Assembly: GCF_963921235.1 (NCBI RefSeq)
Contig: NC_086108.1
Coordinates: 42,410,001-42,474,000 of the forward strand
DNA length: 64,000 nt
Reading direction: 5' to 3'
DNA from: Mobula hypostoma
Lineage: Eukaryota
Part shown: one piece after another, positions 1,042 to 62,909 of the stretch
How the letters are laid out: every line of letters starts with the position of its first letter
Position numbering within the stretch: the stretch's first letter is position 1
Notes under the pieces: generated by a model
What the model saw: only the letters and a program-made list of their open reading frames with translations
Databases searched by the model: none
What the model was told of the DNA's origin: nothing
Made by a program: the position numbers and the translations under genes

Positions 1042-2863
1042 AACTGAAGGAAGAGTGAGTAAGGGATTTGAAAGTTGGAGGGGGAGGGAGAGATCCAAAA
1101 TGATAGGAGAAGACAGGAGGGGGAGGGATGGAGCCAAGAGCTGGACAAGTGATAGGCAAAAGGGATACAAGAGGATCATGGGACAGGAGGTCCAGGAAGA
1201 AAGACAAGGGGGGGGGAAACCAGAGGATGGGCAAGGGGTATATTCAGAGGGAGAAAAAGGAGAGTGAGAGAAAGAATGTGTGTATAAAATTAAGTAACAG
1301 ATGGGGTACGAGGGGGAGGTGGGGCATTAGCGGAAGTTAGGGAAGTCGATGTTCATGCCATCAGGTTGGAGGCTACCCAGACGGAATATAAGGTGTTGTT
1401 CCTCCAACCTGAGTGTGGCTTCATCTTTACAGTAGAGGAGGCCGTGGATAGACATGTCAGGTGGAATTAAAATGTGTGGCCACTGGGAGATCCTGCTTTC
1501 TCTGGCGGACAGAGCGTAGGTGTTCAGCAAAGCGGTCTCCCAGTCTGCGTCGGGTCTCGCCATTATATAAAAGGCCACATCGGGAGTACCGGACGCAGTA
1601 TATCACCCCAGCCGACTCACAGGTGAAGTGTTGCCTCACCTGGAAGGACTGTTTGGGGCCCTGAATGGTGGTAAGGGAGGAAGTGTAAGGGCATGTGTAG
1701 CACTTGTTCCGCTTACACGGATAAGTGCTAGGAGGGAGATCAGTGGGGAGGGATGGGGGGGACGAATGGACAAGGGAGTCGCGTAGAGAGCGATCCCTGC
1801 GGAATGCAGAGGGGTGGGGGAGCGAAAGATGTGCTTAGTGGTGGGATCCCATTGGAGGTGGCGGAAGTTACGGAGAATAATATGTTGGACCCGGAGGCTG
1901 GTGGGGTGGTAGGTGAGGACCAGGGGAACCCTATTCCGAGTGGGGTGGCGGGAGGATGGAGTGAGAGCAGATGTACGTGAAATGGGGGAGATGCGTTTAA
2001 GAGCAGAGTCGATAGTGGAGGAAGGGAAGCCCCTTTCTTTAAAAAAGGAAGACATCTCCCTTGTCCTAGAATGACTTTATTAACTTTGCCTCCAACTTTC
2101 ACCCTGCCCTCAAGTTTACCTGGTCCATTTCTGACACCTCCCTCCCCTTTCTAGATCTTTCTGTCTCTGTTTCTGGAGACAGCTTATCCACTGATGTCTA
2201 CTATAAGCCTACTGACTGTCACAGCTATCTGGACTACTCCTCTTCTCACGCTGTCTCGGCTGTGAGTCGGCTGGGGTGATATACTGCGTCCGGTGCTCCC
2301 GATGTGGCCTTTTATATATTGGCGAGACCCGACGCAGAATGGGAGACCGCTTTGCTGAACACCTACGCTCTGTCCGCCAGAGAAAGCAGGATCTCCCAGT
2401 GGCCACATATTTTAATTCCACATCCCATTCCCATTCTGACATGTCTATCCACGGCCTCCTCTACTGTAAAGATGAAGCCACACTTAGGTTGGAGGAACAA
2501 CACCTTATATTCCATCTAGGTAGCCTCCAACCTGATGGCATGAACATCGACTTCTCTAACTTCCGCTAATGCCCCACCTCCCCCTCATACCCCATCTGTT
2601 ACTTATTTTTATACACACATTCTTTCTCTCACTCTCCTTTTTCTCCCTCTGTCCCTCTGAATATACCCCTTGCCCATCCTCTGGTCCCCCCCCGCCCCCG
2701 TCTTTCTTCCTGGACCTCCTGTCCCATGATCCTCTCGTATCCCTTTTGCCTATCACCTGTCCAGCTCTTGGCTCCATCCCTCCCCCTCCTGTCTTCTCCT
2801 ATCATTTTAGATCTCCCCCTCCCCCTCCAACTTTCAAATCCCTTACTCACTCTTCCTTCAGTT

Positions 2864-2899
2864 AGTCCTGACGAAGGGTCTCGGCCTGAAACGTCGACT
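2864..2899 (+). ncRNA. Minimal type I hammerhead ribozyme motif (PLE), intact
   Basis: AGTC CTGACGA AGGGTCTCGGCCT GAAA CGTC^GACT: stem I AGTC/GACT, cores CUGANGA and GAAA, palindromic ACGU in place of stem III, GUC cleavage triplet. Confidence 0.82.
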
Positions 2900-3159
2900 G
2901 CACCTCTTCCTACAGATGCTGCTTGGCCTGCTGCGTTCACCAGCAACTTTTATGAGTGTTGCTGGTACAAACTTATTTTTCTTACCCTCTTGAGAATAAT
3001 CAGTTTAAGCACACACAGGTATTTTGGTCTATTTGTTCCTGAGAATATCTTGTGAACATCTTTTTAAAGAAGAGCTATAAATGAGATTTAATAAATGTAT
3101 ATAATAGAGTTTTGCTTAGATTGCTGTATTATTTGGTGGTGTTAATGGCGTGATTTAAT

Positions 3160-3842
3160 TTATACTTTATTGTTGCCAAACAATTGATAGTAGAACGTAC
3201 AATCATCACAGCGATATTTGATTCTGCGCTTTCCGCTCCCTGGATTACAAATCGATAGTAAATATTAAAAATTTAAATTATAAATCATAAATAGAAAATA
3301 GAAAAATGGAAAGTAAGGTAGTGTAAAAAAACCGAGAGGCAGGTCCAGATATTTGGAGGGTACGGCCCAGATCCGGGTCAGGATCCGTTCAGCAGTCTTA
3401 TCACAGTTGGAAAGAAGCTGGTCCCAAATCTGGCCATATAAGTCTTCAAGCTCCTGAGCCTTCTCCCGGAGGGAAGAGGGACGAAAAGTGTGTTGGCTGG
3501 GTGGGTCATGTCCTTGATTATCCTGGCAGCACTGCTTCGACAGCGTGTGGTGTAAAGTCCAAGGACAGAAGATTGGTTTGTGTGATGTGCTGCGCCGTGT
3601 TCACGATCTTCTGCAGCTTCTTCCGGTCTTGGACAGGACAACTTCCATACCAGGTTGTGATGCACCCTAGAAGAACGCTTTCTACGGTACATCTACAAAA
3701 ATTTGTGAGGGTTTTAGGGGACAGGCCAAATTTCTTTAGTTTTCTCAGGAAGTAAAGGCGCTGGTGGCCTTCTTGGCAGTGGACTCTGTTTGGTTGGACC
3801 AAGTCAGGTCATTTGTGATATTGACCCCGAGGAACTTAAATT
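3160..3842 (-). mobile_element. Rex-Babar-type LINE 3' fragment
   Basis: QRLYFLRKLKKFGLSPKTLTNF.RCTVES (ALKBH8_N/DUF1891-like tail); near-identical in inverted orientation to the copy at ~56080-56365. Confidence 0.8.
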
Positions 3843-3858
3843 TGTTTTTTTTATTCAG

Positions 3859-4104
3859 ATCAATGCAAAAATTGGAAGAATTGAATCTAGGAATGGACAG
3901 CGTTAGCACAGAGGCACAGTCTCCTAATCAACAATGTAAAGGAAACCAGCCAAGTGCACAAAATGACTCTTCAGCTACCAATTCAGTAACACCTCTTGAA
4001 GTTCGTCAGCAAAGTTCAGGACTACCTAACAGCACAAGTACTCCAATTAAATCCAACACAGGAAATGCATTTCCTCATAACGAGGCATCTTCATTCTTTT
4101 CTAA
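3859..4104 (+). CDS. WDR47: WDR47 coding exon (Ser/Thr-rich linker)
   Basis: ttattcag| acceptor, AA|gtaaga donor; phase 2 in and out; SMQKLEELNLGMDSV...STSTPIK. Confidence 0.92.
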
Positions 4105-4374
4105 GTAAGATGTTTAGGTTGTTGCTGTGGAATAAATGTTGATTTTTAAACTGGCAATTGCTGAGAATGTAAAATGAGAGGATTTGTATCATCGCATATT
4201 GGATGTTAATATGTTCTTTCCCTATCATCTTGCCATAACTAGAAGAATAGTCACATTATTGATCTTAAAAGTGTTGGATTCATATGAACTAACTTAACTG
4301 CTATTCCAGCTGATTAACTCTTGTACATCACAATTGCCCCTTAATGTGCATGATAACATTATTTTTAAACTATA

Positions 4375-4594
4375 CAGGTGGACCCCCCACATTACAAGAA
4401 GGTTGCATTCCCAAAAGTAGGCTGTATTAGGGTTTTGCATAACACCTGCATTGTGTATTTATTTTTTCACCCCCTTCCCAATATAAATTTGGTACAAATG
4501 AATTTTATCCCACATCTCTAATTTTGGGTGATGATCTGTTAATCTGTAAGGACAAATGTCCGTTACCCGAACGTCCATAATGTGGGGTCACCTG
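4375..4594. mobile_element. Tigger/pogo-like MITE
   Basis: ta|CAGGTGGACCCCCCACATTA ... TAATGTGGGGTCACCTG inverted termini; right TA not preserved. Confidence 0.6.
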
Positions 4595-4955
4595 AATGTG
4601 ATCATATATACAAAAGAACTACAGAAGGATGGAGTGAAGGAGGAGGAATTCTCAGGAAAGTGTTCTCAGGGCTAATAATGTTCTCCATTCAATATCTTGC
4701 CGATTAGAAAATCAAACTTGAAATTGACACTGTTTCCTGGCTGTTTTCTAATTGTGTTGCTCATGCTAAACCACACTGAGCTAGTACAGGATGACACAAA
4801 ATGATTTCACTCAACTCAAACCAGAATCTTCTACCGAAACTTAGAAATGATATAAACCCAGTATATGTAGATATGCCCCATCAGGCTAATGCTATTATGT
4901 AGCCAGGCTCTAATGTAATTAACTAAAACATTTTGTTTGTTTTTTTTAAATATAG

Positions 4956-5040
4956 GACAGATTCTCCTGCTTCAACAGATCTTGCAGTAAGTCCACCGAT
5001 GGCAGAAAACGTTTCTGTCAGTGGAACAAAGAATGAAGAG
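4956..5040 (+). CDS. WDR47: WDR47 coding exon (short linker)
   Basis: poly-T then tatag| acceptor, GAG|gtgcag donor; bridges phase 2 to phase 0: (K)TDSPASTDLAVSPPMAENVSVSGTKNEE. Confidence 0.8.
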
Positions 5041-5290
5041 GTGCAGTTCATTTGTGTAGTTTGATTAATGGTAGAATTTGTTGGTTCCTGCTATGTATTA
5101 TAGGCTAACAAGATTCTCTCATTAGCAAATTGTTCACAGAAGCAATTACACATTTATAATCCAAACACTTCCCTAAACTTTTTTGTTTACTAATAGATTT
5201 TTGTAGCTTTAGAATTTATGGTAATCCTTCTGTTTCCCACTTTTCTCTGAGAACTGCTGCTTCTTATTGGGTTCTTTTGTTTCCAAGATA

Positions 5291-6001
5291 CCTTTTTTCT
5301 TTTTCAATATTTTTATTAATTACTTGTATAGACGAATACAAAATACATTATGGTATTATGGAAACAGAAACAAGATTGAATTTCCCCATAACTATGTATT
5401 GTAAATTAACCATAATATTGAAAAGGTACATATTATTCTAATCTAAAGCAAAATCAAAACCCCATAACAAAATAGAAAAAAAAAGAGAGAAGAAAACATT
5501 AAAAGAAAGCTGTTTGGTTAAAAGAAAAGGAAAAAAATCTCTGACATATAGTCATAAATTCAAACATATAATGGCCATCATCATTGCTGAACAAGTCGAA
5601 GATTGTGAAAGTAGTTCCAAAAAGGTCCCCATAATGTGAAAAAATCTTGTCTAGCTATAGAAATAGAACACCTAATCTTCTCTAGATTTAAACATGACAT
5701 AACATCAATCAACCAATGGGCATGAGTAGGTGGAGTGGCATCTTTCCATTTAAGCAACAAAACTCTTCTGGCTAGAAGAGAAATAAAAGCCAAAATATGC
5801 AAATAATTCAGCTTAAGAGTAAAATCATTTCCTCCAACAATGCCAAACAAAGCAGTCAGAGGGTTGGGTTTAAAGTTTACTTTAAAAAGCTCCGAGAAAG
5901 TTTGAAATATTTCTTTCCAAAATTTATCAAGCTGCGGGCAGGACCAAAACATATGAATTAGAGAAGCCTCTTCGACATTACACCTATTACAGTATGGAGA
6001 A
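5291..6001 (-). mobile_element. L1-clade LINE 3' fragment
   Basis: HMFWSCPQLDKFW...ARRVLLLKWK ORF2 C-terminus; T-rich tail at left; 12-bp TSD gtttcc(a/t)agata at 5279-5290 and 6002-6013. Confidence 0.85.
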
Positions 6002-7181
6002 GTTTCCTAGATAACAAAATTTAAGATTTCTTTCCCGAGACTTTTTTGAACTGTAAATGCCCTTATTTAGCCTTAAACATATTTCCTCTAAATTCATTGA
6101 ATTTTTTTCTTTTTACACTGACTGTTCTTTCATGCAAGGATATTGTTATTAATGCTGAAGAGTTACTGTTATGAGGTCAGACTTACCATGTCGTTTACTT
6201 TTTTTAGGTTAAAGGTTACTTGGGGTATATTTAATTGATGAAAATAAAATTAAGATAAATCTTTAAAGGCCTCTGTGGTTGTCTTTAGTAGAGTGGACTA
6301 TATAAAAGTATTAGAGGGGAAATTAAGAAAAAATTTAATGATGGTGGGGTTTGGAAACGGTTGCTTGAAAAGTTGGTGAAAATCTTTCTGTATTTATAAA
6401 ATACTTGGTTAAACACTTCAGGAGCCATAACCAACAAGGCTGTAGATCATTCCACACAACCTACAGTTACTTTAGATATTTACTGACACCTGTTTTACTG
6501 TTTCTTCCCATATCGGAATGACTTTGTCTTTAAAAGCCATTTAGGCAAAAGCTAAATTTATCTCTTTCCTCATTTTTTCCTAGGTTTCTCTTCTTTTTTG
6601 TCTATTTTCTGTACCACATTATTTAATATCTCTTTTCCTTTCAACTCTGTAGGCCAATTTACATTTTATCCATTTTGGCTTTAGAATTCTGTAAGCATCC
6701 GTTCTGTCCTGCAGCTCAGTTTTTAAAAAATTAAAGTCCACTCAATGTGGCTTCTCTTGACCAATTATCTCAGCTAATAGTTTTTTTTTTGAAGAATCAG
6801 GCTGTCTTGAGGAAGCCAGAGCTACTCATGTGACCTTGCAAACCTTTTGAAGCATTCTAGCAAGGAAGCAGTGGAGCACTTGCCATTGTTGTATGCCAAT
6901 AAATTGTTGTTTTGCTTATGAAACAGAGTCAGATCTCTGTTAATATTTCTTTACTCTCTACACCTTTGATCAATTTGTAATATCTAAGTTTAGAACTGAA
7001 ATCTCTTAATCCAAGATGCAGTTAAATTCTAATAAGCACTGTTAATTTTTTTACATGCATAAATTTTATATCAATTAATTTGGTACAAATCTGTTTTTGA
7101 TATTATGCATAAAAAAGTTTGCATAAATTGTGTTGATTTTGGAACCTTAATGTGCATTTGTGTTTTCTATTGCATTAATAG

Positions 7182-7340
<159 letters not shown>

Positions 7341-7713
7341 TAACAGCATGACTAATATATGAAAATACTAAGAACTTAAATTGTTAAAGTAATAAGTGAA
7401 ACAGATCCAGCGTGTTTCTATTAAATTACTGTTCAGCTGCTAACAATTTGAAGGAAAAGAGCACGTCATATCCTTTCAGAACTTTATTAACCAATAGCAA
7501 AACTATCTACATAGAAACACTATTTATGTATATTCTAATTTCCTTGGAGATTAATCTTTTTAAGTTGTTATCTTGACCAGGGATGTGACCTGTAAATCAT
7601 TATTATGATGATTACATATTTTATGTGAAATAATGAGTACATTTATCTTTACTTAGAATTTGTGGGAGGGCAGAATTGTAAAGATGGTATCTATCACTTA
7701 ATAATGTTTTTGA

Positions 7714-7947
<234 letters not shown>

Positions 7948-9049
7948 TGATTGTATGGTTCCTTTTTACTTTGGGATGGAAAATGCTGTTAACTTAGTAT
8001 ATTCTTACATGTTAGCAATGTTGAATTTAATGCTTGAGTTCATTTTTTTTCTAATTATGTTGAAAATTAAAAGCCAATATTTTAATGGTATAACACAATG
8101 AACAAAATATTCAAGATTCTGCAACAGAATTGAAGTAACAATATCTTGTATTTGATTTCTTTTTGCTTAGAAATCAAAATGAACCATAAGGGCTCTGGTT
8201 ATTTACAAAAGGCTGTGAAATCATCTGGGGAAGTTGCGGTTTTAGAATATGATTAAATGAAACAATGGGCAGAAGTCATAGAGCTGTTTTACTGCAATCT
8301 TAATATCAGCCGATACTTGTCCACAGCTAGGGCAGCATTGTGCTCATCAAGAAATGCTGCCAGTTAATCCATGCTATGTTTGTCTATTCCGGTAACAGGT
8401 CAATTAGATCAGTCTTTATGTCATACCATGTTAGCAGTTTTCTGCCTGAAAGTTGATTCCCATCTTACAGCCAACTGTAGATACCATGCAGGATGCTGGT
8501 GTGATCAGTCATGGCCTTTATCTAGGCAATATCCAAAAGACTGGAACAACCTTCCCTGTGATTTTATCAGGCACTTAGAGACATGCTGTTTGATAATGGA
8601 CTTCGAGGCTGTTACATAAGCTCTGTTGGTTAAAGGGATGGAAGAAGTCTAGGATGATAGTTAATACATAACAGCCTCTTAAGACCAAAAGGAATATTTT
8701 GTTTTCACAAAGACAAATGAGTGGCAAAAACAAATGTTGTGGAAAATGCATATTGAAATAGATTGCAAAATACACTTGGATACAGGCCAAATATGTCATA
8801 AGTTGACTATACAAAAATGTTTGGTTCTATTATCAAAAGGAGCTGAGCGAAGCCATAGTACTTAACTGCTTGTGAGCCATGACAAAAAATGCCCCATATC
8901 CTATTGCGTATTTTTGGTCTATGCCAGAAGACTATTAAAAACCCCACACAATATGTCACCAGCTAATGGACAGACTCTTGTAAAGCGTTCAGATTGACCA
9001 TCAGGAAAACTGTATTGGCTTAGAATGTGATCATTTCACTGTAATATAT

Positions 9050-11556: not shown

Positions 11557-11612
11557 TTTTTAAAAACAAAACCTTGTCCATTTTTTTCCCTTAACTAGTG
11601 TCATCTAATCCA

Positions 11613-11725
11613 GGCAACACACATCAAAGTTGCTGGTGAACGCAGCAGGCCAGGCAGCATCTCTCAGAAGAGGTACAGTCGACGTTTCGGGCCAAGACCT
11701 TTCGTCAGGACTCCTCTTGTTTGCA
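11613..11725 (-). mobile_element. Short PLE pLTR insertion with an intact hammerhead core (11677-11712, - strand)
   Basis: 12-bp TSD tcatctaatcca at 11601-11612 and 11726-11737; reverse complement AGTC CTGACGA AAGGTCTTGGCCC GAAA CGTC GACT. Confidence 0.8.
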
Positions 11726-12480
11726 TCATCTAATCCAAGCAGCTTCCTTGTAAATTTCTTCTGCATTCTCTTCAACACAATCACATACTTCCTATAGTTT
11801 GCCAATCAGAAGTGCACAGTATACTCCAAGTATGGCCAAACCAGTATTTTGTAAAATTGCAAAGTAACACCCTGACTCTAGCATTCTATGCCCTATCCTG
11901 TTAATGCAAGCATATCATGTACTTACCTTAATACTCCATCCACCTGTGTTGCCACTTTAAGAGAATTGTGGGCAGACCCCTAGGTGCCTCTGTTTGACCG
12001 CATTTCTTTGTGTCCTACTATTTACTGCAGATGTTCTACTTCTGTTTGACTTTTGGTTTTGTTTATTCAGAGAGCATAATTTTTGATTATAAAAAGAGCT
12101 CAGAAAACTTATTTCGATGAGACATTTGGAAAATCAAGTTATAATTAAAGTTCAGCACTTATGGTTCATTTTATTTCAGAAATTTGGGTGTGATATTCTT
12201 AATTGCCTTTATTCTGGTAATTGCAGAACTGTCATGTGTAATGAAGTGCCATCCATTTATATGATAAAATAAAAGATCTTAGGAACATGACATGGATATT
12301 GTCACAGGTTGCAGAATAGAGGTCGTAAATTTCTATCAGAAATTGCTGGAAATGCTCAGCAGGCTAGGCAGTGTTTATGAAGTGAAAGTCAATGTTTCAG
12401 ATCAAAGGCTTTCTATTATTTTAAAAAAATCACAACGTTATGATTTTATTGCAAAAGTTGGTTATAAATCTAAATGATAG

Positions 12481-15446: not shown

Positions 15447-15722
15447 TGATTCAATTTGTTTCAGGAATTGTAACAGCTAAACAAACTTAAATCATTGCAG
15501 TCTAAGCTGTTGCTCAGCTTATAGTAGAGTAGAAAAGTCCATGTCGTACTTAAGCAAATTCAGCAAAAGGAATGTCGGCTTGTTTTATTATGAAGAAGTG
15601 AGTTACGTTATATGTATCCCTTTATTTCTAAAACAGGTTTTGAATCTCATTACATGAACACAGTTATTTCCTGTCAGGTTGGCTGCCATCACTACCACCT
15701 TTCCATTTATACTTGAGGAGTA

Positions 15723-17505
15723 CATTTCCAAGAAAAAGTTTGTGAACTCTTTACCTGGTTTTCTGCGTTAATTGCTCATAAAATGTGGTCTGATCTTCAT
15801 CTAAGTCACAATAGTAGACAAACGTAAACTGCCTAAACTAATAACACAGGAACAATTGTACTTCTCATCAATACTGAGTACACCATTTTAACTATTACAG
15901 TCAAGGTTCAAAAATGTGTGTGATCTTCTGGAGTAATGCCATCTACCAAAGCTACTGTATTTGGAGTCAGGTGTTTCATTCAATGAGATGAGATTAGAGG
16001 TGTGGGTTGTAAAGGTGCCCTCCCCTATTTAAAAAAAAGACACACAGAGTCAGGTTACTGACTGCCTGCTCTTCTCAAGAAAGATCTGTTTATGTGCATC
16101 ATGCCTTGATCAAAACAAATTTCAGAAAATCTTAAAAGAAGAATTGTAGGGATGCGTGAAGCTGGAAAAAGCTATAAAAGCATTTCTAAAGATCTGAGCA
16201 TTCATCAGTAAGAGAAATGTTCTACAAATGGAGGAAATTCAGTACTGTTGCTACTCTTCCTAGGAGTGGGCATCCTGCAAAGATCACACCAAGAGCATAA
16301 TGTGCAATGCTGAAGGAGGTGAAAAAGATCCCAAGGGTAACAGCAAAAGCTCTGCATTAGTCTCTAGTACTTGTAAAAGTCTCTTCCACTATAAGAAAAA
16401 CGGTGAACAAGTATGGTGTTCATGGAAGAACACCGTGGAGGAAGTTACTGCCCTCCAAAAAACAACATTGCTGCACATCTCAAGTTTGCGAAATGTGTTC
16501 CACAATTGTTCTGGGACAACGTTCTGTGGACAGATAACACAAAAGTTGAACTTTTTGGCAGAAATGCACACTGCTATGTTTGGAGGTAAAATGGCACCAA
16601 AACCTCATCTCAACTGTTAGCCATGGTGGAAGGAGCATCATGGTTTGGGGCTGCTTTGCTGCCTCAGTTTGTGGACAGCTTGTAATCGTTGCGGGAACAA
16701 AATTCAAAACTGTATCAAGACATTTTATAGGAGAATGTCAGGGTAGCGGTCCGTCACCTGAAGCTTAATAGAAGTTAGATGATGCAACAGGACAATAATC
16801 TGTAACACAAGAGTAAATCAACAGCAGAATGGTTTAAAAAGAACAAAATTTGTTATTTGGAATGGCCAAGTCAGAATCCAGACCTTAACCCAGTTGAAAT
16901 GCTGTGGCAGAGTGCTGTTCATGCAGGGCATCTCAGAAATATTGATGAACTGAAATAGGTTTGTATGGAGAAATGGTCTAAAATTCCTCCTCACTGTTGT
17001 GCAGGTCTGATCAGCAGCTGCAGGAAATATGCAGCAGGCCAGGCAGCATCTCTAGGAAGAGGTGCAGTCGACGTTTCAGGCCGAGACCCTTCGTCTGACG
17101 AAGGGTCTCGGCCTGAAACGTCGACTGCACCTCTTCCTGGAGATGCTGCCTGGCCTGCTGCGTTCACCAGCAACTTTTATGTGTGTCGCTTGAATTTCCA
17201 GCATCTGCAGAATTCCTGTTGTTTGAGCTACATGAAGTGTTTGATGGAGGTTATTGTTGCTAAAAGGAGGTTCTACCAGTTATTAAGTACAAGGGTTCAC
17301 ATTTTTTTTCCAGCCTGGACTGTGAATGATTGAACAATGTGTTCAATAAAGACATGAAAAGTATAATTGTTTGTGTGTTATTAGTTTAGACAGATTGTGT
17401 TTGTCTGTTATCGTGATTTAGATGAAGATCAGACCATATTTTATGAGTAACTAATGCAGAAAACCAGGCAATTGCATAGGGTTCATAAACGTTTTCTTGC
17501 AACTA
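15723..17505 (+). mobile_element. Degenerate Tc1 transposon (family B)
   Basis: TA flanks and long inverted ends; frameshifted transposase (VLWTD, GSIMVWGCF, QQDN, WPSQNPDLNPVEMLW); interrupted by a PLE palindrome. Confidence 0.85.
17030..17225. repeat. Palindromic PLE pLTR mini-insertion, 65-bp arms centred on 17096
   Basis: 17031-17095 is the reverse complement of 17097-17161 (1 mismatch); 3' tail to 17225; degenerate TSD at 17016-17028 and 17226-17238. Confidence 0.9.
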
Positions 17506-18218
17506 TACCTCATTGAGTGGAAATGCATTGGAATATTCTGAAAGTGCTATATAAAATCTGATAATTTTAGTGATAAGGTCAAAAGATGTAGATTTTGCTG
17601 TTTGGTGTTAATTTCTGGTTGCAGACTGGAAAGTTAATGAACAATCATGCAAATTGCAATCAATTTTGTAAGGGACAGAATGATCATGCCACTGATGATG
17701 GAATGATATGTAACAAAATCATAACCTACAATTCCTTGCTCAATGAATTCTTAATATTAAGTGTGTTCCAACAGTGAAGACAATCCTTCGCTAACGAGGA
17801 ATAAAATGGACCTTAAGTCACAATGGTTGAAATTGGTTTATTTTGACTTATTCTGCCCTAAATAAACAATGACAAACTACATGCTCTTTTTTTTTAACCA
17901 TTTTGATCACCTGTTAATTTAAATCGAAGTTCTGATTCAGATGAGTATTTCAAGAATACTTTTGGACATTTATTTATCATGAAAGGTTATTTACCTACAA
18001 GCATTTTTGGGAAAAAAAATAAAATAGCCCCTCAAACTGCTTTTTTATGAAGTTCTGATCTAGAAAACTTTTATTCCGCTATTCACCTTACCATTTTGCT
18101 AACAAATCCAATAACATTGAAGTTCATAGTATTGAACTCACTTGAAAAATAATTTTTCAATTTCTAATCTAAATTTCCGTTAGTCATATGATTAATAGCT
18201 AATGTATTGGTCAACAAA

Positions 18219-21883: not shown

Positions 21884-24359
21884 ATCATTTATTTGATGAA
21901 GAGCTTTAGCTTCCAGTTTTGGTATGCAACAGTTTAGCTTCATTTGACTTGTGTTTTATTGTGCAGTTACCCTGTAACTGTGTGGCAGCCTCCTAGCTAA
22001 CTTATTGATCTTCAACTTTCTCTACATTTCTCTACAAATGTCTCACTTGTCAGGTGCATCCCAGTAATACCACACTTCTTGGCAAGCCTTTGTAGAAGAG
22101 CAATCAACATTTTATTCTTGAATCTCCTTCCTCTGGGTAAATTTTGTGTCCTCTGACTATAATATTTGTTTTTCTTTGATGGAGTCCCATTCCATCATGT
22201 AAAAAAACCTTTAGAAATCAAAGTTAGTTTTTTGTCTAGCATATGAAATCTTGTATAGCCATATGTTTTGGGAAATAGTTTATTTTTCAAGCTGTAAGTG
22301 GCATGCCATTGTTACCATATGCAAACTGTTTTGAACAGAAGAACACGTTTCTTCACATCATTACTTTTCTAATTGAAATTTGTAACTTATCCAGGCTAAA
22401 ATGAGTTAAGTTTATCTCTCTTCATTGCAACTTTCTATGCATCTTTGCCTTCATTCTTTTCCCATTCTTGGAAATGGTGAGCCAGATCCCGTTGAACCCA
22501 ACTAGCTACCAGAGCTTGAACTTTTTCTGGGTCAGAGGGCTAGATAAATGATTTGGTAGGTATCCCATTAGGTAGAGCACCTCAGCTCCAAGTGATTAAA
22601 AAAAAAACCTCTGATACTATGTTTGGAAGCCTCACATTCAGAATATCTTGATACCTACTAGAGCATGATTTTATCTGCAGCAACATTACTAGATGAATAT
22701 ACAGATAGAAGCCATACATGCAGTTTAGCTGAATCACTTGAGTAACCTTCTTAAAGGTCAAGCAACATCTGTGAAGTGAGAAATGGGCAAAATATTGACT
22801 TGATAAGTTGCAGCCATTATTTTTGGAATGTTCTATAGTCAAGGTAAATTGTCTTGCGCTATCCAGTTCCAGTACAGTGACGACAATCAATCATGCAAAA
22901 TGAGTGACAATACATTAGTTGGACAATGATCTATAGCACCAGCATGCAAATAGTAAATTGGCATAAGCTTTCATTGCATGTTTTCACTATGTTTACTATT
23001 GTGATAAAAGGGCCACATCAGCATTAGTCTATGATCCAAGTACTGTACACTTACTGCATGCCTGGTACAAGTGGAGGAGGAGTTGTGTAAATAAGAAACT
23101 ACTGACGTTCCATCATACTGATTGGACAATTCTATTAGTGGTGATTCCTAGAGCAGACAGAATGAGATGCATTTACAGAGTTAAAGGTCATTCCAGCTGG
23201 AGATATCGATGATGTACAGGATTTGCTATGCCTTGCAATATAATTTTCCAAAACTGGATTCGGAATATTTCAGTAAGCCACACCTGTTTTATGCAGGAGT
23301 GAAATGTCTCAGGGGATCCCCAGACATCTAGGCGAACAAGATATTGTTCTCAGTTATGTACATATGCACAAAGCAGGAACAACAAAGCAGTATGATTAAA
23401 CGACTTATTGAATCAAGTTAGTAATGGTACAGACTGGGAAACTTAGTGTGGGAAATACGAACCGCCCCTGCTGAGATGGAAACACGCGCACTCAAAAGCC
23501 TACGCCAAAAGGGAGAGCCTTCTGTACGTAGGAGGCCCTATCAATTCACCGCACTATCAAACAGCCACATGAGTACCTGCCACATTCTCGCCCAATTGAA
23601 CTGATAGAGTACATTTCACCCCCCACCCCCACCCCATGGTTGGGAACCATCGTGGAAGGGAATAAGGTAAACTGCAAAAAATGCTGATATGTCTATACTG
23701 CCTGGGTCTGGTCAACTGGCCAGCACACTAGTGGATTGCCACGGGGGTGGGGGGGCAGCTTCTATTTCTGGGCCTGGTTCGCTGATGTCAAGGGCAGCAG
23801 GCTGTGAATCTCCTCTTGATGGTGTCCATTGGTTCATCTGCTGGGATGCTGGCTTCATTAGCAAAGGACACTTCTGTAGCTTCCCTGGGTTGCTGTCAGT
23901 TTGCAGCCATATATGATCCAAATACTTGACTGTGACAATGCTGGATAACAGCCAGTAGCTCATTTTCTTGATGCTGCTCACATGATCCACACCACCCGGT
24001 TCAGGAATAGTTATTACCCTTCAACCGACATGCTCTTGAACCAGGGGGTATAACTTCACTCACTTCTCTCACCTCAACATTGAACGCTTCCCACAACCTT
24101 TGGACCCATTTTCAAAGATACTTCATCTCATATTCTCTATTTATTTATTGTTTGCTTATTTATTTTTGCATTTGCACAATTTGTTGTCTTTTGCACATTA
24201 ATTGTACCTCCATCTTGTGTCCTGTCTATCATTGATTCTATTGCAACACCTACAAAATGCTGGAGGAACTCAGCAGGTCTGGCAGCATCTGTTGAAATGA
24301 ATAAACAGTCGACATTTTGGGCTGAGACCTTTCTTCAGGACTGGAAAGAAAAGGGAAGT

Positions 24360-26405: not shown

Positions 26406-26535
26406 AAACATAGAAACTTAGAAAACCCACAGCACAATACAGACCCTTCAGCCTACAAAACTGTGCCGAACATGTCCTTACCTGAGAAATTACCTAGGGT
26501 TACCCATAGCCCTCTATTTTTCTGAGCTCCATATA

Positions 26536-26757
26536 CAGTGGCAAGCAAAAGTTTGGGCACCCTTGGTCAAAATTTCTGTTACTGTGAATAGCTAAGCGAG
26601 TAAACGATGAACTGATTTCCAAAAGGCGTAAAGTTAAAGATGACATATTTCTTTAATATCTTAAGCAAGAAAACTTTTATTTCCATCTTTTACAGTTTCA
26701 AAATAAAAAAGGAAAAGGGCCCGAAACAAAAATTTGGGCACCCTGCATGGCAGTACT
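26536..26757. mobile_element. Solo terminal repeat of Tc1 family A
   Basis: ta|CAGTGGCAAGCAAAAGTTTGGGCACCC with internal direct repeat; matches the ends at 29366 and 61254. Confidence 0.75.
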
Positions 26758-27220
26758 TATCATAGTCACACACTCATCCACACAGGTTTTAATGAAGTTG
26801 GTGACAACTGTGGCGTACTCATCCAGACTCGAAGGTGACTCCCTGAACACAGTCCAGTCCACCAATTCAAAGCAGTCCTGTAAACGCTCCTGTGCCTCCC
26901 TGGTCCATACCTTCTTGGCCCTCACTACTGGTGCTGAATTTTAATATACTTCTCATTTTGAATTACGTTACTCAGTATTTTGTATGTTTTACACCTCGGA
27001 CCTAGAGGAACGCTTTCTTGTTCAGCCGTATCTATGTATGGTTGAATGATAATTAAAATTGATTTGATCTGATTGATTTGAAGAGGCAATGACCCACTAC
27101 CGATCAACCTCTAGGCACATTTCCCTGCACCCGCCCCAAATCGTCCTCCCTCACTATTATTTAGCAGTCCTTCCAGGTGAGGTAGCACTTCTTATATGAA
27201 TCCATCAGTGACATTTATTG

Positions 27221-28594
27221 CAGTGGTCCCCAACCACCGGGCTACGAGGAAACGATGTGATTTGGCGTTAGGAGTCAGCTGCACCTTTTCTCATTCCCTG
27301 TCACGCCCACTGTTGAGCCATTACGCATGCGAGGTCATGACCCACGCGTTATCCGTGTCAGCGTGGGAAGGAGATCAACTCCTCGAGCTTGCAAATGACA
27401 GCGGGCTGAAAAGTATATTTGACATAACATCAAACTCAAGGCTAAATATCCTGACGTAGCCACGAAAGCACTGACAATGTTGCTTCCATTTCCAACATTT
27501 TTCTGCGAAGCGGAGTTTTCTGCAATGAATGCAACGAAAACTAAATTGCGGAATAGACTGGACATAAGGAACCCCCTTCGAGTATCGCTGTCTCCCATCA
27601 CCCCTCGATGGCATCGACTTGTTGCAGGAAAATAAGCCCAGGGCTTTCACTGATACAGCGATATTGGTGTGTTGCAATGATTTTATATGTTCATACGAGA
27701 AAAATATGTGCTGTGTGTTTAATATCCAAACGTTACCTAAAATGTTATGATGCTATTGACTTACCTATATAACCATATAACAATTACAACACGGAAACAG
27801 GCCATCCGTGCCAAACGCTACTCTCACCTAGTCCCACTGACCTGCACTCAGCCCATAACCGTCCATTCCTTTCCTGTCCATATACATATCCAATTTTTCT
27901 TTAAGTGATAATATTGAACCTGCCTCAACCATTTCTACTGGATGTTCGTTCAATACTTACTTCAAGCTCCCCTGATAATTGACTTACCACTATATTCGTG
28001 CGAGGAAAATATGCGTTGTGTGTTTATTATTAAATTCGTTAGATAAACCCTTTTAGAAACGAAATTGAGTGTATTAGCTATTTATCACCTATATAACAGG
28101 AATTCTGCAGATGCTGGAAATTCAAGCAACACACATAAAAGTTGCTGGTGAACGCAGCAGGCCAGGCAGCATCTCTAGGAAGAAGTGCAGTCGACGTTTC
28201 AGGCCGAGACCCTTCGTCTGACGAAGGGTCTTGGCCTGAAACGTCGACTGCACCTCTTCCTAGAGATGCTGCCTGGCCTGCTGCGTTCACCAGCAACTTT
28301 TATGTATATCACCTATATTCTGGTCGTGATTAATTCCCTCCCCCCGAACAGAATTACCAAAAAGGATTTGCGGGGGGGCGGGGGGGAGAGGAATCGGCAG
28401 GTCACGACGCGCATGCGCACTGGTTCTCACGCAAGGCTTCATGGTCATTGTAGTCTATCTCTGGGTAAACACAACCTATTTGACTGCTAGTCTTGTCCGT
28501 TGGCAATCCTACCCCACGCCCTGGGTCGGCCGGTCCACAAGGATATTGTCAATTTTAAACCGGTCCGCAGTGCAGAAAAGGTTGGGGACCCCTG
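27221..28594 (+). mobile_element. hAT/Charlie-type non-autonomous transposon
   Basis: TIRs CAGTGGTCCCCAACC / GGTTGGGGACCCCTG; perfect 8-bp TSD atttattg; transposase C-terminus LLPFPT..CEAEFSAMNATKTKLRNRL. Confidence 0.9.
28095..28306. repeat. Palindromic PLE pLTR mini-insertion, 86-bp arms centred on 28219
   Basis: 28133-28218 versus 28220-28305 inverted (2 mismatches); perfect 12-bp TSD tatcacctatat at 28083-28094 and 28307-28318. Confidence 0.92.
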
Positions 28595-29110: not shown

Positions 29111-30600
29111 TTAATGCAAAATTTCAAAAGGAGGGCATAGATTCAGAGTTCATTTTATTGAGAGAGCTTCACTCCACGGCATCCAGATTATAGAGTCCTA
29201 ACCCCGCAAGGCCTGCTTCTATCTCCTACCCAAAATCCATAAGCAGGACAGCCTAATAGGCCCATTGTTTCAGCTTGTTTTTGTCCCAACAAACTTACTG
29301 CTTTCTACTGAAACTTTGCCCTTTCTTGATCGGTGCATTTCCATCCCCGTTACATCCATGACATACAGTGGCATGAAAAAGTTTGGGCACCCCGGTCAAA
29401 ATTTCTGTTACTGTGAATAGCTAAGTGAGTAAAAGATGACATGATTTTAAAAAGAAATAAAGTTAAAGAGACACATTTCTTTAATATTTTAAGCAAGATT
29501 ACTTTTTCATTTCTACCTTTTACAGTTTCAAAATAACAAAAAAGGAAAAGGGCCCAAAGCAAAAGTTTGGCACCCTGCCTGGTCAGTACTTAGTAACACC
29601 CCCTCTGGCAAGTATCACAGCTTGTAAATGCTTTCTGTAGCCAGCTAAGAGTCTTTCAATTCTTGTTTGGGGGATTTTCACCCATTCTTCCTTGCAAAAG
29701 GCCTCTAGTTCTGTGAGATTCTTGGGCCATCTTGCATGCACTGCTCTTTTAAGGTCTATCCACAGATTTTCAATAATGTTTAGCTTGGGGGACTATGAGG
29801 GCCATGGCAAAACCTTCAGCTTGTGCCTCTTCAGGTAGTCCATTGTGGATTTTGAGGTGTGTTTAGGACCATTATACTGTTGTAGAAGACATCCTCTTTT
29901 CATCTTCAGCCTTTTTACAGACGGTATGATATTTGCTTCTAGAATTTGCTGGTAATTAATGGAATTCATTCTTTCCTCTACCAGTGAAATGTTCCCCGTG
30001 CCATTTGGAGGGGTAGGCCATTTAGAATGGAGTTGAGGAAAAGCTTTTTCACCCAGAGAGTTGTGGATCTGCAGAATGCTCTGCCTCAGAAGACAGTGGA
30101 GGCCAATTCTCTGGATGCTTTCAAGAGTTAGATAGAGCTCTTAAAGATAGCGGAGTCAAGGGATTTGGGGAGAAGGTAGGAACAGGGTATTGATTGTGGA
30201 TGATCAGCCATGATCACAGGTCCTGGCTCAAAGGGCCGAATGGCCTACTCCTGCACCTATTGTCTATTGTCAGTAGGACAGTGCACCACCACTCCACAGT
30301 TAGCTAAATCTTCCTGAAGGTCTTTTGCAGTCAAACGGGGGTTTTGATTTGCCTTTCTAGCAATCCTACGAGCAGTTCTCTCGGAAAGTTTCCTTGGTCT
30401 TCCAGACCTCAACTTGACCTCCACCGTTCCTGTTAACTGCCATTTCTTAATTACATTACAAACTGAGGAAACAGCTACTTGAAAATGCTTTGCTATCTTC
30501 TTATAGCCTTCTGCTTTGTGGGCATCATTTATTTTAATTTTCAGAGTACTAGGCAGCTGGTTAGAGGAGCCCATGGCTGTTGATTGTTTGGACAAGGTTT

Positions 30601-38296: not shown

Positions 38297-38426
38297 CTGA
38301 CGAAGGTCTCGGCCTGAAATGTCGACTGTACCTCTTCCTATAGATGCTGCCTGGCCTGCTGCGTTCACCAGCAACTTTGATGTATGTTGCTTGAATTTCC
38401 AGCATCTGCAGAATTCCTGTTGTTTG
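38297..38426 (+). mobile_element. PLE pLTR fragment 5'-truncated at the hammerhead core
   Basis: Homology starts at CTGACGA and runs to gaattcctgttgtttg. Confidence 0.85.
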
Positions 38427-39393
38427 CTGCTTAGCTAAATGCTTTGAGAGATAGGATTTTGTTTCATATGAACAATTGAATTTAAGTACATTTACGTATT
38501 GAATAAATTAATATTTTTGTTCATTTCCTGCATGCTGACAAGGTAAGGAGTTATTGCCCATGTATAATGTTTTTGAGGAAATGGTGGTGTCCTGGCTGCT
38601 AGAGCTATTTCAGTCAACAGTAGGAAATGTAAGAGTGAACTTGATCCCATCGCTTTAGCTTTGCAACACACTCCAACCTTTCTGTCTTCACCCTCCTGCA
38701 CTGTACTATCAAAGCTGAGTGTTGTTTTGAAGTATGACACTTCTAACAGCGCATTACAGCTTTCAGGATTCAATCGTTTCTGACCATTGTTTTTCTAATA
38801 TTGACTCTCATGTTTCTAGCTTTCAGTTTTTCTCTCCTGGTACTTCAGATTTCATTTGTCACCCATTAACACTTACCACAGACACATCCTTACTACTCTT
38901 TCAGCTGGCACAACCACTTGTGTCATTTACTCAGTCTTGGGCTCCACTTGATCGCAGTCTGTTCATCTTGTTCGATCTGCATCTCTCCATTTTCTTTGCA
39001 ACTTGAAATACTTGTGGCTTTCCTTAGTTCGGATTAAGGATTATTGACTGAAAATGTTAATGCTCTTTCTCCCACAGATGCTCCCTAACCTGCTGATTAT
39101 TTCCAACTTTTCTTGTTTTCATTTTGGATTTGCCGAATAAGCAGCATTTCAGACTGAGACCCTTCATCACGACTGGTGGACGATGAAAGATCTTTCCCCA
39201 TAATGTTAACTGTTTATTCCCCTCTATAGAGAGGGGAATATCTTGGCTTGCTGAGCTCCTCCACCATTTTGTGTGTGGGGCTTCAAATGTTGCTAGCAAT
39301 GTTCACGTGCCAGAAAAAGTTAACAAAAATAATTTGATGAATGAATCTTTATTTAATGTTTAATTAAATTCTTTACCACTCACTTCATTGAAG

Positions 39394-57850: not shown

Positions 57851-58033
57851 GTGAGTATTGGTTTTCATAAAAAAATTATATAATGTTCTTTATAATAAAA
57901 TTACATGTTATAATGCTCATTTATTGATTAGATCCTGCTGATGTTATATTAAGTTTTAGTGTAATATTAATTTTTGGAGTTGAAGGAGTTGGTATAATCA
58001 TATTTATCTTTCTTTGCTGTTTTTGTTTTGCAG

Positions 58034-58807
58034 GCAATTTGCTATTTCTGTATTCATGCAGTTTTTCGATATGGTTTACCTAGATTCCATCCAGATGATC
58101 ATTTACGGCCTCCAATTGCGCACCATAGTGTGCCATATATAGCGCAAAACTCCGTTCATGATACCTTTTATCAAAGGGAAAGATGTGTGGATTATCAGGC
58201 AGGGGGGGATGCTCGATACGTTCCTGATGCCAGAAAAGATACCAAAAACGAACAGTCTCAGTCTGCAGTTACAGGTCCTGATAGACAAAATAATATGAAT
58301 CAACAGGGTGTTGAAGATGTAATGAATTGGGAGAGAACTAGGGTGTCTGAAAATGGGAGTGGTGACAATCAGCTACGTAGAAGAGTAGTACCAGGCCATC
58401 ATTTTTCTAGGCACTCTTCTGAAAATCAGCAGCCAGTCAGTGGCACCGTTTTGTCTACTGAACCACAGCCACTTGGAGAAAATCTACAAAATGATACAAA
58501 ATTTGTCATGGAACATAATGTTGCTCATCAGGCTGGAGGGGTTGTTGGACAGAATGAACTTGGTGTTTTGCAAAGTAAGAATACAAATGGCCTCCCTTCT
58601 AGCAACTCTAATAAGATAAGAGCGAGGGAGAAGGGTGTGCAGAAAAATGGACAAACTCTCGAGGACCCCTGGATAGCTGACAAGTCTATCAATGCATTTC
58701 CACAGCATCCATCAGACAATGCCACAGACATGGAACCTATTGATAAAAAGAATCTCCAAGAAAAACTTGAAAATGAGGAATCCTTCGTAGAAACTGTGGG
58801 AACAGAG
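58034..58807 (+). CDS. CLCC1: CLCC1 large coding exon 9 (hydrophilic C-terminal tail); reads through to TAA at 58847-58849 if unspliced
   Basis: ttgcag| acceptor, in frame with exon 8, open for more than 250 codons; donor GAG|gtaaat at 58807/58808. Confidence 0.85.
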
Positions 58808-59001
58808 GTAAATTGCCATAAAGTCTTAATTCAGGGCATCCCTGGGTAATAGTCCTTAGATTAATTTTTAAATTAATTAATTTTAAGTTGGAAAATACAC
58901 ACAAATGGCTTGATATCATTACATTATCTTGGAAAGAACAGTTCCTAAAAGTGAAGAGAAAAAAAATCTGATACTGGCTTTTGTAGGAACGAACGTATGT
59001 A

Positions 59002-61226: not shown

Positions 61227-61253
61227 ACTTAACCTATGAAATTCTAGCACATA

Positions 61254-62834
61254 CAGTGACATGCAGAAGTTTGGGCACCCCGGTCAAAATTTCTGTTGCT
61301 GTGAATAGCTAAGCGAGTAAAAGATTAACTTTATGCCTTTTGAAAATCAGTTCAAGATGACACATTTCTTTAATATTTTAAGCAAGAAAACTTTTTTATT
61401 TCCATCTTTTACAGTTTCAAAATAACAGAAAAGGAAAAGGGCCCGAAGCAAAAGTTTGGGCACCCTGCATGGCAGTACTTAGTAACACCCCCTTTGGCAA
61501 GTTTTCAATTCTTGTTTGGGGGATTTTCGCCCATTCTTCCTTGCAAAAGGCTTCTAGTTCTGTGAGATTCTTGGGCCGTCTTGCATGCACTGCTCTTTTG
61601 AGGTCTATCCACAGATTCTCGATGATGTTTAGGTCAGGGACTGTGAGGGCCATGGCAAAACCTTCAGCTTGCGCCTCTTGAGGTAGTCCATTGTGGATTT
61701 TGAGGTGTGTTTAGGATCACTATCCTGTGTAAAAGCCATCCTCTTTTCATCTTCGGCTTTTTTACAGACGGTGTGATGTTTGCTTCCAGAATTTGCTGGT
61801 ATTTAATTGAATTCATTCTTCCCTCTACCAGTGCAATGTTCCCCGTGCCACTGGCTGCAACATAAGCCCAAAGCATGATTGATCCACCCCTGTGCTTAAC
61901 AGTTGGAGAGGGGTTCTTTTCATGAAATTCTGCACCCTTTTTTCTCCAAACATACCTTTGCTCATTGTGGCCAAAAAGTTCTATTCAAAAGGTTCAAAGG
62001 AATATCAAAACAAGCCTGATGCATTTTGGAAACAAGTCCTATGGACTGATGAAGTTAAAATAGAAATTTTTGGCCACACTGAGCAAAGGTATGTTTGGAG
62101 AAAAACAGGTGCAAAATTTCATGAAAAGAAACCCTCTCCAACTGTTAAGCACGGGGCTGGATCGATCATGCTTTGGACTTGTGTTGCAGCCAGTGGCACG
62201 GGGAACATTTACTGGTAGAGGGAAGAATTAATTCAATTAAATACCAGCAAATTCTGGAAGCAAACATCACACCATCTGTAAAAAAAAAAGCCGAAGATGG
62301 AAAGAGGATGACTTCTACAACAGGATAATGATCCTAAACACACCTCAACATCCACAATGGACTACCTCAAGAGGCGCAAGCTCAAGGTTTTGCCATGGCC
62401 CTCACAGTCCCCTGACCTAAACATCATCGAGAATCTGTGGATAGACCTCAAAAGAGCAGTGCCTGCAAGACGGCCCAAGAATCTCACAGAACTAGAAGCC
62501 TTTTGTAAGGAAGACTGGGCAAAAATCCCCCAAACAAGAATTGAGAGACTTAACTGGCTACAGAAAGCGTTTACAAGCTGTGATACTTGCGAAAGCAGGT
62601 GTTACTAAGTACTGCCATGCAGAGTGCCTAAACTTTTGCTTTGGGCCCTTTTCCTTTTTTATTATTTTGAAACTGTAAAAGACGGAAATAAAAAAGTTTT
62701 CTTGCTTAAAATATTAAAGAAATGTGTCATCTTTAACTTTATGCCTTTTGGAAATCAGGTCATCTTTTACTTGCTTAGCTATTCACAGTAACAGAAATTT
62801 TGACCAGGGGTGCCCAAACTTTTGCATGCCACTG
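61254..62834. mobile_element. Fold-back Tc1 (family A): two transposase 3' halves in inverted orientation
   Basis: TA at both flanks; PDLNIIENLWIDLKRAV on both strands; junction ~61985-62058. Confidence 0.9.
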
Positions 62835-62909
62835 TAGGTCAATTAAGATTTAGCATCTTTAGTGCTATTATGTGAATAGATTAGTAATTAATCTGGGGGG
62901 GGGAGGGGG

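Follow-up and report, generated by a model that had tools for sequence, protein, structure and literature searches.

A palindromic insertion at 17031-17225 of the 64-kb window analysed here (the whole stretch of 64,000 nucleotides) raises the question of whether a hairpin folded on a hammerhead ribozyme core belongs to a mobile family of its own or was left behind by the integration of a Penelope-like element (PLE). The first-pass annotation had offered both alternatives, a non-autonomous hairpin family mobilised by PLE enzymes and a reproducible fold-back step in PLE integration; the evidence below fits the second and does not support the first. In itself the insert is an ordinary by-product, save for one unusual trait: a second, separate insertion turns at the very same base, where the ribozyme motif has its edge.

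Two palindromic insertions with one junction

The features of the insertion (copy 1) and of the transposon in which it lies are listed below, with offsets counted from the C of CUGA.

15720-17508, plus strand: decayed Tc1-type DNA transposon hosting copy 1 (TIRs 15720-15868 and 17354-17508, 81% alike)
17016-17028, plus strand: left copy of a degenerate 13-bp TSD, 10/13 identical to 17226-17238
17029-17030: filler of 2 nt after the left TSD
17031-17095, minus strand: tail-less short arm, covering +2 to +67 of the PLE end in antisense
17095-17225, plus strand: long arm, sense PLE end with the C of CUGA, stem II, GAAA, the GUC cleavage triplet and the 3' tail
17226-17238, plus strand: right copy of the degenerate TSD

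In the assembled sequence, the arms at 17031-17095 and 17097-17161 paired at 64 of 65 positions around T17096, the palindrome centre, in agreement with the annotated inverted arms of 65 bp around one central T. Copy 1 was asymmetric, with a right arm that continued for 64 nt beyond the palindrome to the end of the element tail at 17225. Its outer ends were located at +131 (tailed) and +67 (short arm), and the short arm stopped about 25 nt before the usual 3'-end site. No differences from the majority of young arms were found in the short arm and two private differences in 130 nt in the long arm; the TSD had diverged at 3 of 13 positions, more than the arms of copy 1 themselves.

The annotated position of copy 1 inside a Tc1 element was supported by the TIRs, by transposase-like frames in the host, and by public contigs (four runs from four organisms were examined) of other Tc1 copies without the insert, which join 17028 to 17263. 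A further Tc1 of the window, when aligned to the host, was too diverged to define an empty site. Another Tc1-like family with long TIRs was present in several copies (61248-62836, 26530-26760 and 29360-30003), and the arms of the copy at 61248-62836 were only 73 nt apart at the centre.

The 23-nt junction motif occurred exactly twice in the window, at 17085-17107 and 28208-28230, and none of 100 shuffles gave a match with up to three mismatches tolerated. This exact match substantiated the claim that the junction of copy 1 recurs at 28219, where a second insertion (copy 2) was resolved into the following parts.

28083-28094, plus strand: left TSD of copy 2, 12 bp, identical to 28307-28318 (12/12)
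28095-28218, minus strand: tailed long arm, covering +2 to +126 of the PLE end in antisense
28218-28305, plus strand: tail-less short arm, in which the PLE end reads in sense from CUGA as far as about +88, with the centre at T28219

The two copies, 11 kb apart, share their junction and subtype and are of the same young age. Around T28219, 84 of 86 positions paired, and the arms were longer than those of copy 1. The tailed long arm was on the left in copy 2 and on the right in copy 1, and the centre polarity was opposite, the central T belonging to the tailed arm of copy 1 but to the tail-less arm of copy 2. In the comparison of arm lengths, TSDs and shared variants proposed in the annotation, the lengths differed, both copies had a TSD (12/12 and 10/13), and no derived variant was common to the two, the four arms carrying four private differences in all; a comparison of two such young copies has little power. 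Judging by frame resemblance, the surroundings of copy 2 (27300-28590) presumably represent the 3'-terminal part of a decayed hAT-type transposon.

The parent element and its hammerhead

Copy 1 had been described as lacking coding sequence, and it indeed consisted of only two truncated PLE ends with no ORF. Further PLE copies in the window are relevant to its origin.

905-2965, unstranded: long head-to-head insertion of the parent PLE, with GIY-YIG end, 3' UTR and hammerhead, and a tail on the left arm only
11607-11726, unstranded: third short fold-back, in which an antisense arm from -4 (AGTC) is joined to the last 12 nt of the tail in sense, with an 11-bp TSD
38297-38426, plus strand: solo PLE end, tailed, beginning at CUGA (0 to -3)
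39142-39286, unstranded: older fold-back of a diverged subfamily, turning at the hammerhead core; arms from about -4/-6 and about +2, spacer about 13 nt

The arms of copies 1 and 2 were 95-98% identical to the ends 905-1037 and 2868-2963 of the long insertion. This insertion has a 14-bp TSD with one mismatch and a non-palindromic junction near 2070, and contains a GIY-YIG frame at 2261-2566 (Pfam E 5.9e-05, 23.7 bits vs a cut-off of 22.6) as well as a pyrimidine-rich 3' region; judged from its sequence, the layout appears to be that of endonuclease-containing PLEs. A 63-aa fragment at 2070-2258, which we take to resemble RT C-terminal motifs, matched no Pfam family. The right arm had its RT-like fragment (2070-2260) fused to the GIY-YIG part via an internal deletion, and the left arm exhibited a separate small deletion near 1460. 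At the fold-back 11607-11737, the arm began exactly at the stem-I 5' strand AGTC, and another PLE end was located 50 nt away.

In X1 and X5, the contig depth summed over the PLE exceeded that of unique flank by a factor of about 1e5-1e6, a value that reflects great abundance only and gives no copy number. By the variant sites 17128 and 17178, the young family fell into subtypes, each making up about half of it in both X1 and X5; run X15 (organism F) contained a subfamily further removed, whose sequence behind 17127 was different. An X5 contig joining 17127 to 17095 connected a hammerhead end to the start of the next hammerhead (AGTC), in tandem and about 35 nt apart, which is possibly a natural dimer arrangement. 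The PLE end was also read into two predicted ray proteins, P0002 and P0003 (one a STARD3NL isoform, the other a model of CoA synthase), which may be prediction artefacts or exonised repeats. Both are labelled Mobula at their source, an indication that the host of the PLE is a batoid. With an open frame across the junction used as a proxy, matches were obtained for neither of two candidates and for two of 199 longer candidates; both of the latter were ray gene models containing an ordinary sense PLE end and no junction. Elsewhere in the window, a 283-aa stop-free frame at 57998-58849 matched no Pfam family and is possibly a long host exon.

The parent contains a minimal type-I hammerhead composed of stem I (AGUC/GACU), the core CUGACGA, stem II and GAAA, with a cleavage triplet ending at +27. 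Set against this structure, the central T corresponded to the U of the CUGA core, as the annotation had it. Both palindromes turn at +1, and the stem-I 5' strand is therefore lost; in copy 1, TCGT stands in place of AGTC. The core CUGANGA, stem II, GAAA and the cleavage triplet were retained on the plus strand of both copies and were absent from the minus strand. A single hairpin of -154.7 kcal/mol was predicted for the copy 1 RNA (z -19.5; 0/200 shuffles equally stable), and the best predicted fold retaining stem II was -118.3 kcal/mol, 36 kcal/mol above the hairpin. The TCGT replacement and the fold energies thus supported the earlier statement that stem I has been removed and that the RNA is a long hairpin and no ribozyme.

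Several other assignments were examined and set aside. An active ribozyme was rejected because stem I cannot form and the hairpin is more stable by that same difference, and a turn at the ribozyme cleavage site was rejected because that site is at +28 and the turn at +1. Rfam gave no matches in the 64-kb window at the gathering score, and the hammerhead segment found 0 loci in viral and 0 loci in prokaryote genomes. In a metagenome scan with variable spacer, none of the 50 loci was similar to the element beyond about 30 nt, which identifies them as chance microbial hairpins. Two microbial contigs contained short hairpins near-identical to the junction by chance (L002:599-626 and L024:527-551), with overlapping palindromes in L024.

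Just upstream of the hammerhead, at 2850-2870, a pyrimidine tract ends in CAG followed by TTAG, and in the older copies at 24338 and 63752 CAG occurs immediately before TCC. These stretches resemble a splice acceptor placed at stem I, an arrangement described for Drosophila Penelope; in Drosophila virilis, the intron ends at helix I (PMC4209133). The 2850-2870 stretch was also predicted to form a hairpin with the hammerhead core.

Arm ends and competing explanations

The 3' ends of the family fell into two classes, at about +88 to +98 and about +126 to +131. Loose ends of contigs in X1 and X5 clustered correspondingly at 17186 and at 17224/17225, 39 nt apart (317 vs 274 contigs, the latter 95+179, in X1; 300 vs 253 in X5). 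One end of each class was found in 905-2965, in 11607-11726 and in copy 2, and copy 1 combined a tailed end with its short +67 arm.

At the other side of the arms, a profile trained on eight window copies gave 17 matches in the window, 11 of which started between -15 and +5, five reached the upstream edge of the profile and one started at -26; none of the 17 started downstream of +5. In a detection control with four real copies, three of which had been among the training copies, starts from +10 to +50 were recovered in 20/20 cases, at +60 in 3/4 and at +70 in 2/4. The 11 core-proximal matches included four focal arms and five old copies with uncertain 5' limits, in which the core-proximal start may arise because the upstream part fails to align. 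The clean young cases were 11607-11712 (-4) and 38297-38426 (0), and ends at the core edge were also seen without the focal copies (11607, 38297 and 39142).

Junctions were further collected from contig joints, as a well-supported subset comprising the best 15 of 298 (table 5) and the best 12 of 221 (table 5c). After removal of three Tc1 empty-site rows, three duplicates and three same-strand rows, 18 distinct antisense-to-sense joints were retained. These listed joints turned at many places, and five of them were common to organisms A and B and one to A and F. An arm end within -4 to +4 was observed in 7/18, compared with a uniform expectation of 10-14% (p 0.002-0.008), and in the remaining 11/18 neither end was within 4 nt of the core. 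The excess at the core is suggestive only, because the subset was chosen by support and the reference was centred on the core. The hammerhead 5' edge appears to be a preferred, non-exclusive end for arms, which makes repeated junctions plausible without a master. The same-base turn in two insertions hints at a preferred stop in copying, rather than a new self-copying element. It is possible, though less likely than not, that in vivo the PLE template always ends at the hammerhead 5' edge, with the junctions recording the meeting of two cDNAs.

We consider each palindrome to be a one-off integration product of an autonomous GIY-YIG PLE, with no hairpin master, at a probability of about 0.7. Exact recurrence needs a strong hotspot or a family, and the hotspot was favoured over a family, over coincidence or conversion, and over an assembly artefact. 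Two identical junctions per 64 kb are likely only with thousands of copies genome-wide, for which a genome of 3.5 Gb was assumed here and in the pair probabilities below; the need for thousands of exact-junction copies counts against the one-off hotspot, since a family would give them too. Such a family would have one or a few symmetric masters: read-through would transcribe them, and the PLE enzyme, acting in trans, would start in the 3' arm and copy through the turn. It would account for identical junctions that arise by chance in only about 1 in 1,250-8,450 cases (uniform independent ends) and for two copies equally young and of one subtype, and non-autonomous PLE derivatives do exist (PMC8557442; preprint 10.64898/2026.07.22.740005). 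We nevertheless regard it as unlikely. An independent 5'-end hotspot already makes repeat junctions likely, the public contigs show many other junctions, the outer ends of copy 2 fit the two start classes as those of 905-2965 do, and the reverse transcriptase would have to pass through a hairpin of -155 kcal/mol. The absence of common derived variants, the opposite centre polarity and the difference in arm lengths between the copies all argue against the annotated family, in what is, with two copies, a weak test. One asymmetric master cannot yield both placements of the central T; a symmetric two-tailed master could. Likewise doubtful, and slightly more so, is the idea of a hairpin retroelement that propagates itself at high copy number as the exact CUGA-centred palindrome, a symmetric PLE end with a disabled ribozyme for which the parent enzyme would act in trans; if true, thousands of perfect dsRNA hairpins would have been seeded in ray genomes.

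An accidental match among thousands of rare junction types, or a conversion across 11 kb, would be compatible with a window picked for its oddities and with the low contig depth of the other listed junctions (at most 153, vs about 5-15 for single-copy contigs). These depths set no ceiling, because junctions of high copy number are masked in short unitigs; the probability of a pair within a single 64-kb window is 1e-7 to 1e-5 if a genome has 30-300 copies, and the core excess persists outside the focal copies, which makes coincidence or local transfer improbable. Least probable is an assembly artefact, either a longer spacer that was collapsed or a fold-back chimera that was assembled. None of the 32 pieces listed (of more than 115,000) reached 31 nt past the centre in both directions, which counts neither way. 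The palindrome ends inside the element and not in unique flank, the Tc1 is collinear on both sides, the arms have independent substitutions, and the copies differ in arm lengths, each with its own TSD.

Two known classes of element were also rejected as candidates: a MITE, because the ends are unequal, variable and retroelement-derived, and a non-LTR retrozyme, because the inserts are single and head to head, with no tandem intact hammerheads.

Proposed integration model and described PLE insertions

Both copies exhibited head-to-head inversion, a tail of 30-40 nt at one end only, a TSD and a GIY-YIG-bearing parent, and their arms were near-consensus PLE ends lying head to head between TSDs. 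They are very young, extremely 5'-truncated head-to-head insertions of an abundant PLE from a cartilaginous fish. The head-to-head pattern is already known for PLEs, and copies 1 and 2 are its shortest form. The reproducible fold-back in PLE integration suggested by the annotation fits the one-sided tail, the TSDs, the mixed junctions, the core-edge excess and the turn in the older subfamily.

In the integration model that we propose, the PLE enzyme would cut both target strands and prime one cDNA from each, as lizard Poseidon does in vitro. The two cDNAs would begin at two internal start sites, giving an end with and an end without tail, and both would tend to stop after 90-130 nt at the hammerhead 5' edge, a place at which the template may start, undergo processing or be obstructed. 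As candidate causes of the stop, transcripts may start in the pLTR, a splice acceptor may lie there, or RNA that is folded or bound by protein may block copying. The 3' ends of the cDNAs would then meet and, with 1-3 nt complementary to each other, be joined. Two cDNAs ending at the C of CUGA would read ...GTCAG-3' and could pair as C-G / A.A / G-C, and extension would yield the observed junction; the A.A mismatch, if resolved either way, would leave the two copies with opposite centre polarities. Equivalently, one cDNA might self-prime at the quasi-palindrome GTC-CT-GAC (-3 to +4) and lose one base. The product would be inert DNA, and its transcript a long hairpin with no ribozyme. The unmodified 3-bp match of GTC-CT-GAC predicts a 2-nt spacer, compared with the observed 1 nt, and the perfect palindrome GTCGAC (+25 to +30) was unused as a turn in copies 1 and 2. 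By DNA dimer energies, the observed junction was not specially stable (-3.2 kcal/mol at offset 0, -5.2 at -3/-2 and -7.0 at +5).

Much of this structure has precedents. Rotifer Penelope elements exhibit inverted pLTRs, one-sided tails, TSDs and palindromes at the inverted junction, for which self-priming was proposed (PMC3846280). The same traits are treated as general PLE features in PMC8557442, where the origin of the inverted repeats is still described as undefined. Endonuclease-positive (EN+) PLE inverted insertions (PMC3846280, PMC8557442) and the present ones have in common a 5'-truncated inverted plus direct copy, a one-sided tail of 30-40 nt and a palindrome. They differ in the TSD, which is 8-10 bp in PMC3846280 and 11-14 bp here, and in the junction palindrome, 18 and 38 bp in that source and 131-173 bp with a 1-nt centre here. 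Unlike the insertions in that source, copies 1 and 2 contain only the two truncated ends and no ORF, and their junction recurs at the hammerhead CUGA; the self-priming described there is on an antisense template, and its accessible text does not place the turn relative to the ribozyme.

For Poseidon of Anolis carolinensis, cutting and extension of both target strands were described in vitro, with two internal RT starts about 110-170 nt downstream of the hammerhead that define the tail, and with products that shorten as the template is 5'-truncated (accessible part of PMC11167929). Poseidon and the window PLE are alike in a hammerhead at the pLTR edge and, under the proposed model, in tail-defining starts and in the cutting and extension of both strands; head-to-head products, in contrast, are not reported in that part of the source. 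The minimal type-I hammerheads of metazoan PLEs (PMC4209133) resemble the parent in their minimal core, 4-bp stem I and a stem III that is palindromic and near-absent. The same source describes solo motifs as well as pairs on opposite strands at distances of 100-700 bp; copies 1 and 2 differ from such pairs in being fused at the core, with stem I lost. The non-LTR retrozymes of 10.64898/2026.07.22.740005 are like copies 1 and 2 non-coding, hammerhead-bearing, PLE-derived and about 200 nt long. They form head-to-tail tandem units with intact hammerheads, whereas each insert here is single and head to head, with a disabled hammerhead. The remark in the annotation that no description of the structure was known accordingly holds for the exact junction and fails for palindromes at PLE inverted junctions, which PMC3846280 describes. 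The recurrent CUGA-centred junction was not found in the literature searched, whose scope left out most subscription papers and Repbase/Dfam.

The inserts would supply perfect hairpin RNA to editing or small-RNA pathways. If the template end is fixed at the hammerhead, the junctions would form a genome-scale read-out of how PLE inverted repeats arise. If the turn truly piles up at one base by the hammerhead, thousands of natural junctions would be available in a very abundant family; these could separate twin cDNA joining from self-priming by genome sequence alone, and could locate the 5' end of the PLE template in vivo.
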